IMG/VR virus record: IMGVR_UViG_3300031227_011131 | Length of the DNA stretch: 64,000 nt | Source of the DNA: a virus | Taxonomy: Duplodnaviria > Heunggongvirae > Uroviricota > Caudoviricetes | Strand: one strand, 5' to 3' | Part shown: positions 982 through 55,549 of the stretch, piece by piece | Layout: each line of letters starts with the position of its first letter | How positions within the stretch are numbered: position 1 is the first letter of the stretch | The notes under the pieces: generated by a model | Told to the model about the DNA's origin: nothing | The model's database searches: none | Seen by the model: the letters and a program-made list of their open reading frames with translations, nothing else | Translations under genes and position numbers: made by a program

Positions 982-1551
982 TTGGTTCACGAGGAATTCC
1001 ATTTCAAAGGAGCAAGTAGTGTGGACAGAGAAAGAGTAGCGCGAAACTTGGTAAAGTTAGCTAAGGAATTAGTTGCTGCGAAATTTGAGTTCAAACGTCT
1101 CAAGGGTAACCCTAATTCGTGGTATAACAATCCTCAGATGCGCGGCCACACATCGGCAAAAAAAACCGTTGATGAATTAGAGAGAATTGTTGTTAAATAT
1201 AGTAAGACTCCCGAGCAACGATTTATCATTGGTCGTGTTATTGATTTTGTTCAAGATGACTGGGATTATTTTCACAAAATCACAAAGAAGTATATGGCAA
1301 ATCTTTTGTTTACGTTGAAGAATCTTGACAAACTTGGTCCACTTGGAATGTTGATAAAATATCAGTCTCGTAGTGGCATTTGGCGTGAAGACGTAGAGCG
1401 TATACTCAATGTTATGGCGTATGATGATGACCCGGCGTCCTATGTTGATGAATATATAAGCCAATATATTTATCTTGGAATGGAACCCGAGGAGGCCAAA
1501 GAGCGTATCGAGAAATTGGTAAAGGTTTGGCGTTCTGACATGAGTATGTAA
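982..1551 (+). CDS. hypothetical protein with N-proximal RVARNLVKLAKELVA module
   Basis: 189 aa ORF. Carries the recurring KR-VAR-LVKLAKEL peptide module described in findings. Confidence 0.4.
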   Translation: MVHEEFHFKGASSVDRERVARNLVKLAKELVAAKFEFKRLKGNPNSWYNNPQMRGHTSAKKTVDELERIVVKYSKTPEQRFIIGRVIDFVQDDWDYFHKITKKYMANLLFTLKNLDKLGPLGMLIKYQSRSGIWREDVERILNVMAYDDDPASYVDEYISQYIYLGMEPEEAKERIEKLVKVWRSDMSM

Positions 1552-1730
1552 TTATTAAAGATGTTAATTCAATATTGGCTGTTAGATGGAGGACGTTGTG
1601 ATGTTTGAATGGCTTTTTGGTCGTCGTTTGTGTGATGCGCCTGACGATATTCGTCGTCGTGGTCGCGCATTGGTATTTGGCGCTTCGGCTTCAGTAAAAA
1701 CTTCTGTTGAAATAGAACAGGACAAGGAAA

Positions 1731-2264
1731 GTGAGGAAAGTGATGGAGATGAAGAAGAGGAAGACAGCGGATAAATCTATTTTGTCATTTTACTTATCGT
1801 ATGACCCAGAAGCTGAATCATTCTATGTTCAGAGTGATTTGACTCATAGGTTGTCTAGTAGAATTGCATCAGATGATTATGAATTATCTCCGGGCGGTCA
1901 GATAGTTTTATCGACAAATGTCAATGTTTTGAAGGGTATTATTGGAAGGATGCGCGGTTGGGCGAAGACGATTCTCAACAAGATTTATCGTGTACGGATG
2001 ACAGATGAATCTATCTTAGAGATATTGAAAGAGCGTGGATTATCTTCGGGGTGGTCGGTCGGGAATTTGTATAAGGGCAGGTATTACGATAGGCGGTCAA
2101 ATAATTCTTACAATGAGAAGAGTTTCACGATAGACATCAAAGGGTTGGATATGGATATTATTCGGAGCATTGCGAAGGCTCTTGGTAAGAAGTTCAATCA
2201 GAATGAGGTTATGATAGTTGATAACTCAAGTGGTGTTGCAAAGATAATCAAGACAGGAGCATAA
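1731..2264 (+). CDS. hypothetical protein
   Basis: 177 aa ORF on the + strand, abutting the next gene. Confidence 0.35.
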   Translation: MRKVMEMKKRKTADKSILSFYLSYDPEAESFYVQSDLTHRLSSRIASDDYELSPGGQIVLSTNVNVLKGIIGRMRGWAKTILNKIYRVRMTDESILEILKERGLSSGWSVGNLYKGRYYDRRSNNSYNEKSFTIDIKGLDMDIIRSIAKALGKKFNQNEVMIVDNSSGVAKIIKTGA

Positions 2265-2266
2265 TA

Positions 2267-52756: not shown

Positions 52757-54709
52757 ATGGCTAAGAAGTCTCAAATTGAGGTTACGGAAGAGGAAGTCAA
52801 GCGGCGTCGCAAGAAGGTAAATTCTGTACGTCGTATTGCGGAGAATATTCATAAGCTCCGCAGGCAGATAACTACTGATCTCAAGTCAGATAACGAGAAA
52901 ACCAATTTGACTGCTCTTGTCGTTTCCATTATGGACAAAACTGCCGAACGTGTTGGAAACGAATCATCGGCAGATAGTGGTCATTATGGTGTTACTGGAT
53001 TTCGTGTTAAGCATGTAAGCGTAGAAGGCAACAAGGTACGGTTGAATTATGTTGGAAAGTCGGGCGTAGAGCAAATTAAAGAGTTTACTGATAGTAACAT
53101 GGCCAACATGCTCGTAAAGTGCATGGAGAGGGCTGAAAACAGCGAATTCCCGGTGTTTACCACGTCTGACGGTTTCAAGATAAAGGCTGATAGAATCAAT
53201 AGGTATTTGTCCAAGTTTGGGATTACTGCTAAAGACATTCGGGGATATTCGGCAAATCGTTTTTTGGTTGATTCTCTCAAAAATGCTGAGATTTCAGGAG
53301 ATGAGAAAGATCGCCAGAAAAAGTTTCGTGAGGTTATCAAATCGGTAGCCGAGCGAGTAGGTCATCAGGCGGCCACCTTACGGAAACACTATTTATTGCC
53401 TAATCTTGAAGACGAGTATGTTAAGAAGGGAAATGTTGTATCTGTCAAAGAAGCTGCTGTTGTTACGGAAGGCAGTATTAGCATTATAGCAAGTCGTTTA
53501 GTTAGGGCATTTGTTAGGCAATATAAAGAGAATAGTGATGGCTCAGTTACATTTTTTTCAACAAAGTATTGGCCGAAGTTTTTAGTGATTCCTCAAGGCA
53601 AAAACAAGTATGAAGTAGTGCAGTTTGCATCCAAAAAAAAGGTCATGAATGCGTATAAAAAACTACCTATTTCAAGGCTACTCAGATATCTTTTGGCGTT
53701 ACAGATTGAGATTTTCCATTTAGATAAGTTTATGGCGAAAGTTGAAGAGGGCGATTTTGAACGAGCCTATAAGGGTTATGTTGAGACCTATGTGGGAATA
53801 GCTTTGTGTAAGTTGGCATCTTCTGGGGCCGGTTTTAAGAAGTTAAAGTCTACTGGTAGGAAAGCGTATGATTTCATTGTAGAGAAGGATTTTGATGTTG
53901 ACAAGATTGGTTTGTTTGATTTTCTTGTTGTAAAGAACAAGATGGAATTGTCATTTTTTGAGCCTTTGTTTGGCGAGATTGAGGCTACAAAGAGCGAGAG
54001 TATAGAAGAATACAATTATAAGGACTGGAATATACTCGTTGATGTCAAAACAAAGTATGATACGGCCAGTATTACGAAACTTTTGGATAAGGTAGAGTCT
54101 GCATTACGGTCAAAAGGTATGGGAAAATTGGCTTATGGTAGTGTGTTCGTACATCCCACATTACCTGGGGGTGATATGGCTGATTATGATGAGAGTAAAG
54201 ATTCTTTGCGTCTTCGCTCAAAGGGACTTAAAGGAACATCGCGGCAAGTGTATGATGTGCTTCATGAATTGGCTCATCGTAATTGGAGTAAGTTTGCAAG
54301 TAAGCAATTGAAGTCTATGATGATAAAGAAGTATCGCATGTCGGAATTTGCTGAGCCAACTTCAAGGGATTTAAAATTGAATATTGGCGACGTAATTATT
54401 GATAAAAGTGCAGGCGATAAATATGAAGTATTGGAGTGTGGGTATGTTGATGTTATTGTGGAGCTGATTGAGACGACAAAACGTCGTCAAAGGAGTATTG
54501 GGAAAAAATATAAGATTTTCACAAAAACAATTGCAACTGATAGTCTTACTATAGAGGGTAAAAAGAAGCCTGATTTGGATTACAGTTCGTATTTTCCCAC
54601 ATCGTACAGTCAGACTGATTATGAAGAAATGTATGCTGAGTTGTTTTCTGTATGGGCAACTAAGGGTCTTAATGACCCTGCTCGTTCGTGGTTTGAGGAT
54701 TTGCATTGA
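52757..54709 (+). CDS. protein with an N-terminal type IB topoisomerase-like catalytic domain
   Basis: IRGYSANRF (compare FRTYNAS), then 41 aa later VGHQ, then exactly 9 aa later LRKHYLLP (compare SKxxYLDP). This spacing matches the topo IB R-H-Y catalytic triad. Confidence 0.45.
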   Translation: MAKKSQIEVTEEEVKRRRKKVNSVRRIAENIHKLRRQITTDLKSDNEKTNLTALVVSIMDKTAERVGNESSADSGHYGVTGFRVKHVSVEGNKVRLNYVGKSGVEQIKEFTDSNMANMLVKCMERAENSEFPVFTTSDGFKIKADRINRYLSKFGITAKDIRGYSANRFLVDSLKNAEISGDEKDRQKKFREVIKSVAERVGHQAATLRKHYLLPNLEDEYVKKGNVVSVKEAAVVTEGSISIIASRLVRAFVRQYKENSDGSVTFFSTKYWPKFLVIPQGKNKYEVVQFASKKKVMNAYKKLPISRLLRYLLALQIEIFHLDKFMAKVEEGDFERAYKGYVETYVGIALCKLASSGAGFKKLKSTGRKAYDFIVEKDFDVDKIGLFDFLVVKNKMELSFFEPLFGEIEATKSESIEEYNYKDWNILVDVKTKYDTASITKLLDKVESALRSKGMGKLAYGSVFVHPTLPGGDMADYDESKDSLRLRSKGLKGTSRQVYDVLHELAHRNWSKFASKQLKSMMIKKYRMSEFAEPTSRDLKLNIGDVIIDKSAGDKYEVLECGYVDVIVELIETTKRRQRSIGKKYKIFTKTIATDSLTIEGKKKPDLDYSSYFPTSYSQTDYEEMYAELFSVWATKGLNDPARSWFEDLH

Positions 54710-55086
54710 TGGTTTGTCAAGTAAGGAGGTTTTTTATGGACAGTAAAAGAATAGCAAGCCATTTGGTCAAGTTGTCAAAACAATTGATGGGCGCTCGCAT
54801 GCGTAAGACGTATTCCGGGAACGTGGCCACCATGGTTTGGCCACTGAGGGCATTCAGAATTTACACATCCCAGATTCCCACACAGATCAAGAAGTTTGAA
54901 TCTCAGGTCAAACGTGCAAAAGGTCAGTTGAAGCGTGGTGGCCTTGAGATTGTTGCGGAGGAGCCGTCCGTGTTGATTAGTGAGAGGGGTGATAAGGGGT
55001 TGACGCTTAATTGGTCTTGTAACATTCAGATGACAGATGGCATGGAGTCCATTTTAGAGTCTCTGGGTTGGAATCTTTCTGTTTAG
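54706..55086 (+). CDS. hypothetical protein with N-terminal DSKRIASHLVKLSKQL module
   Basis: 126 aa ORF. Confidence 0.4.
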   Translation: MMVCQVRRFFMDSKRIASHLVKLSKQLMGARMRKTYSGNVATMVWPLRAFRIYTSQIPTQIKKFESQVKRAKGQLKRGGLEIVAEEPSVLISERGDKGLTLNWSCNIQMTDGMESILESLGWNLSV

Positions 55087-55108
55087 AAAGTTTGTCAAGT
55101 AAGGAGTT

Positions 55109-55549
55109 TTGCTGATGGACAGAAAAAGGGTAGCGAGAGAATTGGTCAAGTTGGCTAAAGGGATTATGGCTAGGGATAAGGTTGTTGTTACGCGGGCAAA
55201 CATAGATGTTTCCACCCCCGAGAGTTTGAGCTATTATATGGGATGTGGTTCAGGTAGGTATGATTACAGCGTAACTGGTATTGGTCAATCAGAGTATGAG
55301 GCGTATGAAGACGCTATAGAAGCGATTTACCAAAGTCATAATATAGATGATAAAGACCGTAAAACCAAGAAGATTTTTAAGGATTTAGGTAGAGGTTTGA
55401 GCAAAGACGAGGATATTGAGCAATATGTAGATGATTACGTTGATGATGATTATGATACTACAAGAGAATATGAAGAAGCGGTTTCTGAGGCAATGTCCGA
55501 TGTGAATTATTACGCTTGCATACAGTATGACATTGAAGAGAGTGGTTGA
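55109..55549 (+). CDS. hypothetical protein with N-terminal DRKRVARELVKLAKGI module
   Basis: 146 aa, acidic C-terminus. Confidence 0.4.
   Translation: MLMDRKRVARELVKLAKGIMARDKVVVTRANIDVSTPESLSYYMGCGSGRYDYSVTGIGQSEYEAYEDAIEAIYQSHNIDDKDRKTKKIFKDLGRGLSKDEDIEQYVDDYVDDDYDTTREYEEAVSEAMSDVNYYACIQYDIEESG

Follow-up and report, generated by a model that had tools for sequence, protein, structure and literature searches.

Seven proteins encoded in a 64,000-nucleotide stretch of Caudoviricetes DNA (IMG/VR record IMGVR_UViG_3300031227_011131; the whole stretch is referred to as the window) carry the same short amphipathic segment, hereafter the tag, on otherwise unrelated cargo. The tag also recurs elsewhere in the same genome and in phage-like loci of metagenomes, and it is probably a portable docking helix for one common partner; that this partner is the assembling capsid is a more tentative proposal. 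The window belongs to a phage contig of 221,945 bp (ENA ERZ27316532 k141_455309), fragments of which are also found in JGI and Logan assemblies. All genes of the source genome lie on a single coding strand, its GC content is about 42% and its GC skew is strong.

A preliminary description of the window had placed the tag at the N-terminus of open reading frames (ORFs) 23823, 29485, 54706 and 55109, near the N-terminus of ORF 982, within ORF 28466 and at the extreme C-terminus of ORF 2267. A six-frame regular-expression scan returned exactly these seven segments, all on the + strand, in the following genes.

1021..1551, +: T1, 176-aa protein; tag at residues 1-20 (nt 1021-1080), MDRERVARNLVKLAKELVAA; start GTG 1021, not TTG 982
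2267..2737, +: T2, 156-aa protein; tag at nt 2669-2728, VRVGKIARNMVKLAKGLLEL, at the extreme C-terminus, followed by DD and the stop codon
23829..24221, +: T3, 130-aa protein; tag at nt 23829-23888, MNRKRLAKEFVEVAKLLLAT, the most divergent copy
28466..29446, +: T4, 326-aa ORF; tag at residues 110-129 (nt 28793-28852), MDEKRVASELVKLAKQIVSN
29485..29889, +: T5, 134-aa protein; tag at nt 29485-29544, MNRKRVARELLKLARELQAM, followed by a WGR domain
54736..55086, +: T6, 116-aa protein between the topoisomerase IB and portal genes; tag at nt 54736-54795, MDSKRIASHLVKLSKQLMGA
55115..55549, +: T7, 144-aa acidic protein, the second tagged gene 5' of portal; tag at nt 55115-55174, MDRKRVARELVKLAKGIMAR

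The program-made ORFs 982, 23823, 54706 and 55109 open at upstream TTG codons. With the starts corrected to GTG 1021, GTG 23829, ATG 54736 and ATG 55115, the tag begins at residue 1 in each; the four N-terminal placements therefore held, with only the start of ORF 29485 (GTG 29485) left unchanged, and the copy in ORF 982 is N-terminal rather than near the N-terminus. ATG or GTG directly precedes the Asp/Asn of six of the seven tags, Shine-Dalgarno sequences (AAGGAG, AAAGGGG, AAAGGAAAA or TAAGGAGG) lie 6-10 nt before those starts, and independent gene calling on the source contig arrived at identical starts for the three genes checked (T1, T6 and T7; 176, 116 and 144 aa). The copy in ORF 28466 is internal, as described, in that it lies in frame inside the ORF, yet it is headed by its own ATG (28793) behind a strong Shine-Dalgarno sequence, AAAAAGGGAG. 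Only the copy in ORF 2267, which is truly at the extreme C-terminus, lacks a start-codon position; AlphaFold2 run without an alignment predicted, at low confidence (mean predicted local distance difference test score, pLDDT, of 62), a terminal helix at residues 133-155 of this protein. An upstream-region search found no general motif or promoter common to the tagged genes. T6 and T7 share a 16-nt sequence, TTTGTCAAGTAAGGAG, right before their start codons (54705-54735 and 55084-55114) that is absent from the other tagged genes.

A hidden Markov model (HMM) was built from the seven segments, as the preliminary description had proposed. Its members scored 31.2-39.9 bits and the next six-frame match 6.8 bits. 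When each tag was omitted in turn, the omitted tags scored 7.6-36.5 bits and non-tag sequence at most 7.9 bits, and each tag outranked all non-tag sequence; T3 was the weakest (7.6 versus 4.6 bits). The maximum obtained with 20 codon-shuffled windows was 8.6 bits. From the HMM scores, the leave-one-out ranks and the shuffled-window maxima we conclude that recurrence of the tag is real and far beyond chance. Two additional N-terminal segments appeared tag-like by eye but scored no more than 3.6 bits and were not counted, one in a 621-aa acidic protein (61074-61133, MRMEARMLIRLAMLEHGIIA) and the other in an 85-aa protein past the portal gene (62969-63013, MKRERIAKMVDRIAQ). The homologue of the 85-aa protein in metagenome locus L047 begins MDEKRMAAMADKVAD and is also below HMM significance.

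The source genome contains at least seven tagged genes in addition to those of the window. Four of these genes follow the window.

T8, 130 aa: N-terminal tag MNEKRVAKKLLRLAKECLG, strong, just past the window
T9, 140 aa: N-terminal tag MNCKKLAQELVRLAKVLIS, strong, just past the window; its cargo is a paralogue of that of T3
T10, 98 aa: N-terminal tag MNGKQVAQQLVRLAKELSSA, strong, just past the window
Eleventh tag, weak: MARNEEIARKILKIAKELTGG, after the prohead protease gene

Three more tagged genes, for a 179-aa protein, a 172-aa WYL_2-like protein and a 498-aa CCA-adding enzyme whose tag, MIAKELIKIARLLL, is shortened, lie in L051, another, non-overlapping part of the genome. We also searched three sequence collections for DNA that could encode M-[DN]-x-K-x-h-A-x-x-L-h-[KR]-L-A-K, using a degenerate pattern. 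It matched 45 loci in metagenome contigs, with record titles that include microbial mat and activated sludge, and eight stretches on five contigs in IMG/VR. The two matches in 596 Gb of bacterial and archaeal genomes give the empirical false-positive rate; both are chance matches, one being interrupted by a stop codon and the other falling within an unrelated enzyme. HMM-supported tags were present in 41 of the 45 metagenome loci, and the flanks hold many extra tags outside the selection imposed by the pattern. The remaining four loci (L011, L015, L030 and L043) are without an HMM-supported tag and probably reflect chance. When 1.84 billion representative proteins were searched exhaustively with the profile, whose 19 columns limit sensitivity (top scores near 40-49 bits), 28 matches at E <= 1e-3 were obtained; in most of these proteins the tag occupies residues 1-19, and several have a second copy that is C-terminal or internal.

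Other searches were negative. No genuine tag match was obtained in GenBank phages by tblastn, the narrower pattern K-R-V-A-x-x-L-V-K-L-A-K had no match in IMG/VR, and a word-indexed protein search with 43-residue N-termini, which uses an index ill-suited to a 20-residue motif, also gave none. The source of the window is itself a jumbo phage without a close relative among GenBank phages (blastn and tblastn) or in IMG/VR (queried with T7 and the 621-aa protein). The tag is restricted to one phage clade.

Tags scoring at least 15 bits in the window, its flank and the metagenome loci made up a set of 101. In 95 of these an ATG or GTG stands exactly at model position 1, preceded by a Shine-Dalgarno sequence in 91; of the remaining six, four lie at N-termini with a shorter lead and two at the very C-terminal end. 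Tagged genes are packed into dense, arms-race-like arrays, accounting for 63 of the 218 ORFs in 15 larger loci and for as many as 12 of 23 in a single locus.

A logo was generated from 83 non-redundant N-terminal copies, and the 39 copies outside the ascertainment of the search pattern gave an identical logo. The consensus is M-[D/N]-x-K-x-[V/I/L]-A-x-E-L-[V/L/I]-[K/R]-L-A-K-x-[L/I]-x-[A/G/S]. Conservation is highest at Ala7 (99%), Leu10 (96%) and Ala14 (95%), and the information content is 2.7-4.3 bits at positions 1-2, 4, 6-7, 9-15 and 17, falling below 0.8 bits from position 21 onwards. The segment is predicted to be a self-contained amphipathic alpha-helix of about 17 residues, in which Asp/Asn at position 2 would be the N-cap and Gly/Ser/Ala at positions 19-20 the C-cap. 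On a helical wheel the hydrophobic residues V6, L13, L17 and L10, then A14, A7, V18 and V11, span an arc of about 160 degrees, and the opposite face bears Lys, Arg and Glu; the hydrophobic moment is about 0.5 and the mean hydrophobicity is negative. The net charge is +3 to +4 for the copies in the window and averages +2 in the family, reaching as low as 0. An AlphaFold2 model of T5 made with few orthologues has a tag helix at residues 3-19 and a linker at residues 20-28 with pLDDT below 50, followed by a confidently predicted WGR fold.

The preliminary description had put DNA conservation of the tags at about 70% and proposed that different codons are used for the same residues. We measured 63% over codons 2-19, a lower value; the codon argument itself was borne out, as positions 1 and 2 are 73% identical and position 3 only 43% among the copies in this genome. 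Across the 83 tags, Ala7 uses all four Ala codons and Leu10 all six Leu codons. As third positions diverge and synonymous codons vary freely, selection acts at the peptide level. Conservation at the nucleotide level, as a translation-initiation or regulatory RNA element, or else a gene-calling artefact, could account for a segment found at 5' gene ends, with A-rich codons 2-5 and, in T6 and T7, a shared upstream sequence. The codon analysis effectively refutes this explanation, the occurrence of the same peptide at C-termini and internally rules out a role in translation initiation, and the tagged genes have no common upstream motif.

The 80 distinct complete tagged proteins range from 15 to 447 aa, with a median of 112 aa. 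After the tag was trimmed, 77 cargo parts fell into 70 BLAST clusters. Pfam and PHROGs identified scattered families (WGR, DUF5661, zinc ribbons, WYL_2, HTH_7 and the CCA-adding enzyme), to which inspection added a J-domain protein, and among the 74 tagged proteins compared with these two databases no family occurred in more than two members. T1 had no Pfam or PHROG match. The isoelectric points of the cargo are evenly split between acidic and basic. These cluster numbers and distinct folds agree with the initial view of a portable terminal helix on unrelated proteins, as opposed to a single ancestral domain, and they indicate that the tagged set is not one fast-evolving paralogous family. The WGR assignment of ORF 29485 was upheld by Pfam (33.2 bits). 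Orthologues of T5 at 43% and 30% identity keep a diverged tag, and this retention indicates that the tag is functionally required rather than a transient fusion. In locus L033 the J-domain protein has a weak tag-like N-terminus and a tag-like C-terminal helix, neither of which reaches the HMM threshold. As the preliminary description had supposed, the tag belongs to no described family that we could find: it has no match in Pfam, PHROGs or PDB, and none to a known DNA-binding family. The best PDB match, to de novo designed helical proteins, was non-significant (E = 0.1), and a search of 8 million full texts with motif strings did not find the tag.

ORF 28466 (T4) had been called ferritin-like, and Pfam agrees (Rubrerythrin, 33.8 bits); an EncFtn-like match fell below its cutoff (21.3 versus 27 bits). 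Residues 26-108 form a rubrerythrin/EncFtn-like half-ferritin with two ExxH motifs. The tag follows this part in frame and is itself followed by 196 aa without an assigned function. The closest homologue, P0029, has the same in-frame layout, consisting of a ferritin-like part, the segment G-M-N-E-N-R-I-A-V-E-L-V-K-L-A-K-E-L-V-A and a different C-terminal part. In L033 the ferritin-like homologue has a gene of its own, whose product bears a tag at the N-terminus and ends in a degenerate, charge-reversed tag-like helix, EEKIASDIAELSELLGDK. More distant ferritin-like homologues are without tags and have other C-terminal domains. The rubrerythrin-like module of about 100 residues (FINPFxG...EAVHLYEA...EEKVHAGEF), encoded by nt 28466-28790 and found in the metagenomic proteins P0029-P0038, is mostly N-terminal and joined to variable C-terminal domains, and judging from these sequences it may be a second portable N-terminal unit. 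DUF5661 is present on two proteins with this module and also directly behind the tag in L021 and L044.

Several tagged genes lie among the genes for head assembly. This module begins in the window and continues past it, where the prohead protease gene (phrog_18299; with an intein) is followed by the major capsid gene. Its main landmarks in the window, and the order of the genes, are as follows.

49779..52688, +: large terminase subunit with an intein, marking the start of the head module
56726..61069, +: portal protein with an intein and LAGLIDADG inserts
First part: terminase - topoisomerase IB - T6 - T7 - two unknowns - portal
After portal: 621 aa - 85 aa - 129 aa - 134 aa (WYL) - 260 aa (zinc ribbon) - T8
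After T8: 446 aa - 148 aa - T9 - T10 - 81 aa - 123 aa - 271 aa - protease
After the protease: 157 aa - weak tag - ... - capsid protein

T8-T10 and the weak eleventh tag thus lie between the portal and major capsid genes, around the intein-bearing protease gene. In related loci the same slots are occupied by unrelated tagged cargo: L013 has it before portal, L047 behind the 260-aa zinc-ribbon protein and L032 around the 123-aa protein. In L014 a tag forms the C-terminal end of the homologue of that conserved 260-aa head-module protein. The tandem arrays and these syntenic slots by portal, the 260-aa protein and the protease mark hypervariable hotspots of cassette-like turnover.

We propose that the helix would serve as a portable address label, encoded by the first 19-20 codons of a gene or, rarely, by its last codons, and that a flexible linker would join it to a cargo of any fold. 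The strict conservation of the hydrophobic face, with two Ala residues seven positions apart, points to tight packing on one conserved surface, so that the tag helix would dock into a single conserved, phage-made receptor site. The likeliest receptor would be the scaffold, the core or the inner surface of the assembling procapsid. The procapsid is the best candidate because the tagged genes fill variable slots among the terminase, portal, protease and capsid genes, because a prohead protease is present and the cargo has the appearance of nucleic-acid-directed accessory or anti-defence proteins, and because the arrangement mirrors that of the internal proteins of phage T4. The tagged accessory proteins, comprising nucleic-acid binders, RNA-repair enzymes and presumed anti-defence effectors, might then be packaged alongside the DNA and reach the next host with it. 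Tags are more alike within a genome than between genomes (51% versus 46% identity, a difference reached in 0 of 2000 permutations), as would be expected if they tracked one genome-specific partner. From these observations we infer a single partner, the capsid as that partner, and injection of the cargo; a docking helix of this kind is probable, and the complete sequence of events through the capsid is plausible at somewhat less than even odds.

Several results weigh against targeting to the capsid. The 83 kb examined contains ten clear tags, and five of them are outside the head module, T1 and T2 lying among small genes and T3-T5 around a helicase gene; the proximity of tags to head genes in other contigs is partly a detection bias, head genes being the most conserved phage genes. 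No partner protein of the tag has been pinned down. Neither the [LIV]-x-E (phage T4-type) nor the [SAG]-x-E (phiKZ-type) protease motif is enriched after the tag, so that its removal is unsupported. Tags are also found at C-termini, twice per protein and on a CCA-adding enzyme, with tag-like segments on a J-domain protein; C-terminal and double tags would fit any docking or bundling system and are therefore not capsid-specific. Third codon positions, too, are more alike within a genome (0.46 versus 0.36), and the likeness of tags within a genome may thus reflect duplication or gene conversion rather than co-evolution. Finally, tagged proteins are far more numerous than the handful of capsid-targeted proteins of phage T4.

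It is possible, at a lower probability than capsid targeting, that the tag is instead one half of a general addressing system encoded by the phage, by which dozens of accessory proteins would be gathered during infection in an intracellular hub or compartment rather than simply loaded into the capsid. Either a dedicated receptor or the tags themselves would gather the proteins, and bivalent proteins tagged at both N- and C-termini would cross-link them; the members might include the RNA-repair enzymes, the J-domain protein, the WGR, WYL and zinc-ribbon nucleic-acid binders and the presumed anti-defence effectors. If true, large phages would have a new principle of organisation, and its membership list could be read from sequence. 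Another, about equally doubtful explanation is that the tag is a module for self- or hetero-association, a short coiled coil with the heptad g-a-b-c-d-e-f = E-L-V-K-L-A-K, through which tagged proteins would bundle with one another or with a coiled-coil hub into a factory, condensate or multi-enzyme complex and not enter the virion. With a and d occupied by Leu, b by Val and e by Ala, this pattern would produce the observed arc of about 160 degrees. Cross-linking would also suit the proteins that carry several tags or a tag at both ends, the CCA-adding enzyme is tagged in a genome rich in RNA-repair genes, and even the best, non-significant PDB matches are designed helical proteins. At about 2.3 heptads, however, the tag is short for a stable autonomous coiled coil, its near-invariant sequence on more than 100 proteins of many phages suggests one fixed receptor, and coiled-coil formation would leave the enrichment in the head module unexplained.

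Binding to a conserved host protein is improbable, as is a signal to a chaperone or protease (for example a DnaK-type site or an unfoldase degron) by which localisation, timing or turnover of the accessory proteins would be set. Hsp70-binding peptides have Leu-rich cores with basic flanks, which the tag resembles, the J-domain protein is tag-like at both ends (below HMM thresholds), and there are tagged genes outside the structural module. Chaperone and degron motifs are nevertheless short and degenerate and would work without a capped helix of 17 residues in which Ala7, Leu10 and Ala14 are invariant; moreover, the tag occurs at either terminus, and its genome-specific flavours suit a phage-encoded partner better than a host one. 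We consider it still less probable that the tag is an in-plane anchor bringing proteins to the cell membrane, as its terminal position, its amphipathic nature, a polar face rich in Lys and Arg and a moment of about 0.5 could suggest. Membrane helices keep physico-chemical character over sequence and usually contain aromatic residues, whereas the Ala and Glu positions of the tag are near-invariant, its mean hydrophobicity is negative and its WGR, zinc-ribbon and CCA-adding cargo acts on nucleic acids. A basic, arginine-rich-motif-like helix that tethers cargo to phage DNA or RNA is very unlikely: the charge of the window copies and the nucleic-acid binding of several cargos would agree with it, but the family charge averages only +2 and can be 0, the conserved residues are hydrophobic and not basic, and no known DNA- or RNA-binding family matches.

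Among known systems, the functionally closest appears by analogy to be the capsid-targeting sequence (CTS) of phage T4, carried by Ip1-3 and Alt. In that phage the leader is MKTYQEFIAE, to which the tag (MDNKxVAxELVKLAKxLxA) has no resemblance, and no PHROG is common to the tagged proteins. The T4 internal proteins share only an N-terminal leader, which directs packaging (PMC12373910, PMC3012670, PMC5694885). In both systems a short N-terminal peptide (10-20 residues in phage T4) is all that small, non-essential and otherwise unrelated proteins have in common, the genes are in variable hotspots, a prohead protease is present and new members are recognisable by the leader alone. The present tag differs in that it is a longer, capped amphipathic helix without a conserved protease site after it, it is also C-terminal or doubled and is borne by far more genes, and here packaging is what we infer.

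The N-terminal 30 residues of P1 DarB suffice to send DarB or a reporter into the capsid (PMC9024508). DarB is a large helicase-type anti-restriction protein, and in the window tagged genes flank a large helicase gene. The P1 Dar proteins have no consensus (PMC9024508), whereas here the helicase is untagged and a strict consensus unites the small proteins encoded next to it. Encapsulin cargo-loading peptides and the coat-binding helices of scaffold proteins (P22 gp8, the 80alpha scaffold and the SaPI1 CpmB C-termini) are likewise short, terminal and portable to foreign cargo; they dock cargo or scaffold inside an HK97-fold shell, whereas capsid docking of the tag is our proposal. One tagged ORF also encodes a rubrerythrin/EncFtn-like half-ferritin, a classic type of encapsulin cargo. 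The cargo-loading peptides of Family 1 encapsulins are C-terminal, extended and rich in Gly, Ser and Leu. The helical, basic tag is unlike this consensus, and no encapsulin shell gene was seen. The amphipathic AKAP helix that anchors protein kinase A in eukaryotes is 14-18 residues long, has paired hydrophobic residues every 3-4 positions and binds in the groove of a small helical dimerisation/docking bundle. The likeness to the tag is an analogy of mechanism only, the sequence and the biology being unrelated.

The helicase gene and other neighbours of the tagged genes have features of their own.

24254..28198, +: untagged 1314-aa SNF2-family helicase (Pfam/PHROG match), with the tagged genes T3, T4 and T5 on its flanks, T3 adjoining it on the upstream side

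The long N-terminal half of this protein has no assignment, and in addition to the helicase profile it matches the PHROG profile of a 2269-aa 'DNA methyltransferase'. On account of this second match the protein could be a DarB-like anti-restriction protein. The genome contains nine tRNA genes and RNA-repair-like genes, including an AAA_33 P-loop kinase and a phage T4-type RNA ligase 1 (window 435-23521; 10-429; 8543-9658). Farther along the genome, in L051, the tagged CCA-adding enzyme is accompanied by a caspase-family peptidase and a 2H 'Swiss Army Knife' phosphoesterase. At window 6819-8465, MORN-like repeats (...G.RHR.DGPA...) make up the products of six or seven consecutive tiny genes (56-101 aa), and a comparable repeat region is present in L028, a different contig of the same sample series. 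At 37504-40977 an AAA+ ATPase gene (409 aa) lies about 1 kb upstream of a gene for a DUF2201 VWA-like protein (406 aa), with two small ORFs between them; the N-terminal domain of the latter protein is weakly metallopeptidase-like, and the two resemble a MoxR/VWA-style pair.

A gene of the TnpB/IS605 OrfB type with a Cas12f-like TNB domain (45548-46696) is located just 5' of the packaging genes. The 650-aa topoisomerase IB (52757-54709) has a eukaryotic-type catalytic core (Pfam, 104 bits), and its location between terminase and the tagged genes before portal is unusual for such an enzyme. Mobile elements are found within essential head genes, comprising a terminase intein with LAGLIDADG, two Hint/LAGLIDADG inserts in portal and the protease intein (window 49779-52688 and 56726-61069; L007 16361-18646; L022 9209-12196). 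The major capsid gene may be intron-split, since two free-standing LAGLIDADG ORFs directly precede its C-terminal portion.

The sequence family described here and its scale are new, whereas the kind of system is already known. If the tag does load cargo into the capsid, its 19 residues would make a compact, transferable means of loading foreign proteins into a large capsid, and the system would test whether terminal-peptide cargo loading, as in encapsulins and phage T4, is a general property of HK97-fold shells. Even if packaging proves wrong, more than 100 unrelated proteins with a near-invariant docking helix imply a hub protein worth finding. The internal-protein genes of phage T4 were first catalogued by their shared leader, and their products were later shown to be anti-restriction effectors. 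If the tag is an address label, dozens of 'hypothetical' genes per genome would become sortable by sequence across an uncultivated clade of large phages, and the genes so sorted would constitute one functional class with the same destination, probably the capsid and then the next host.

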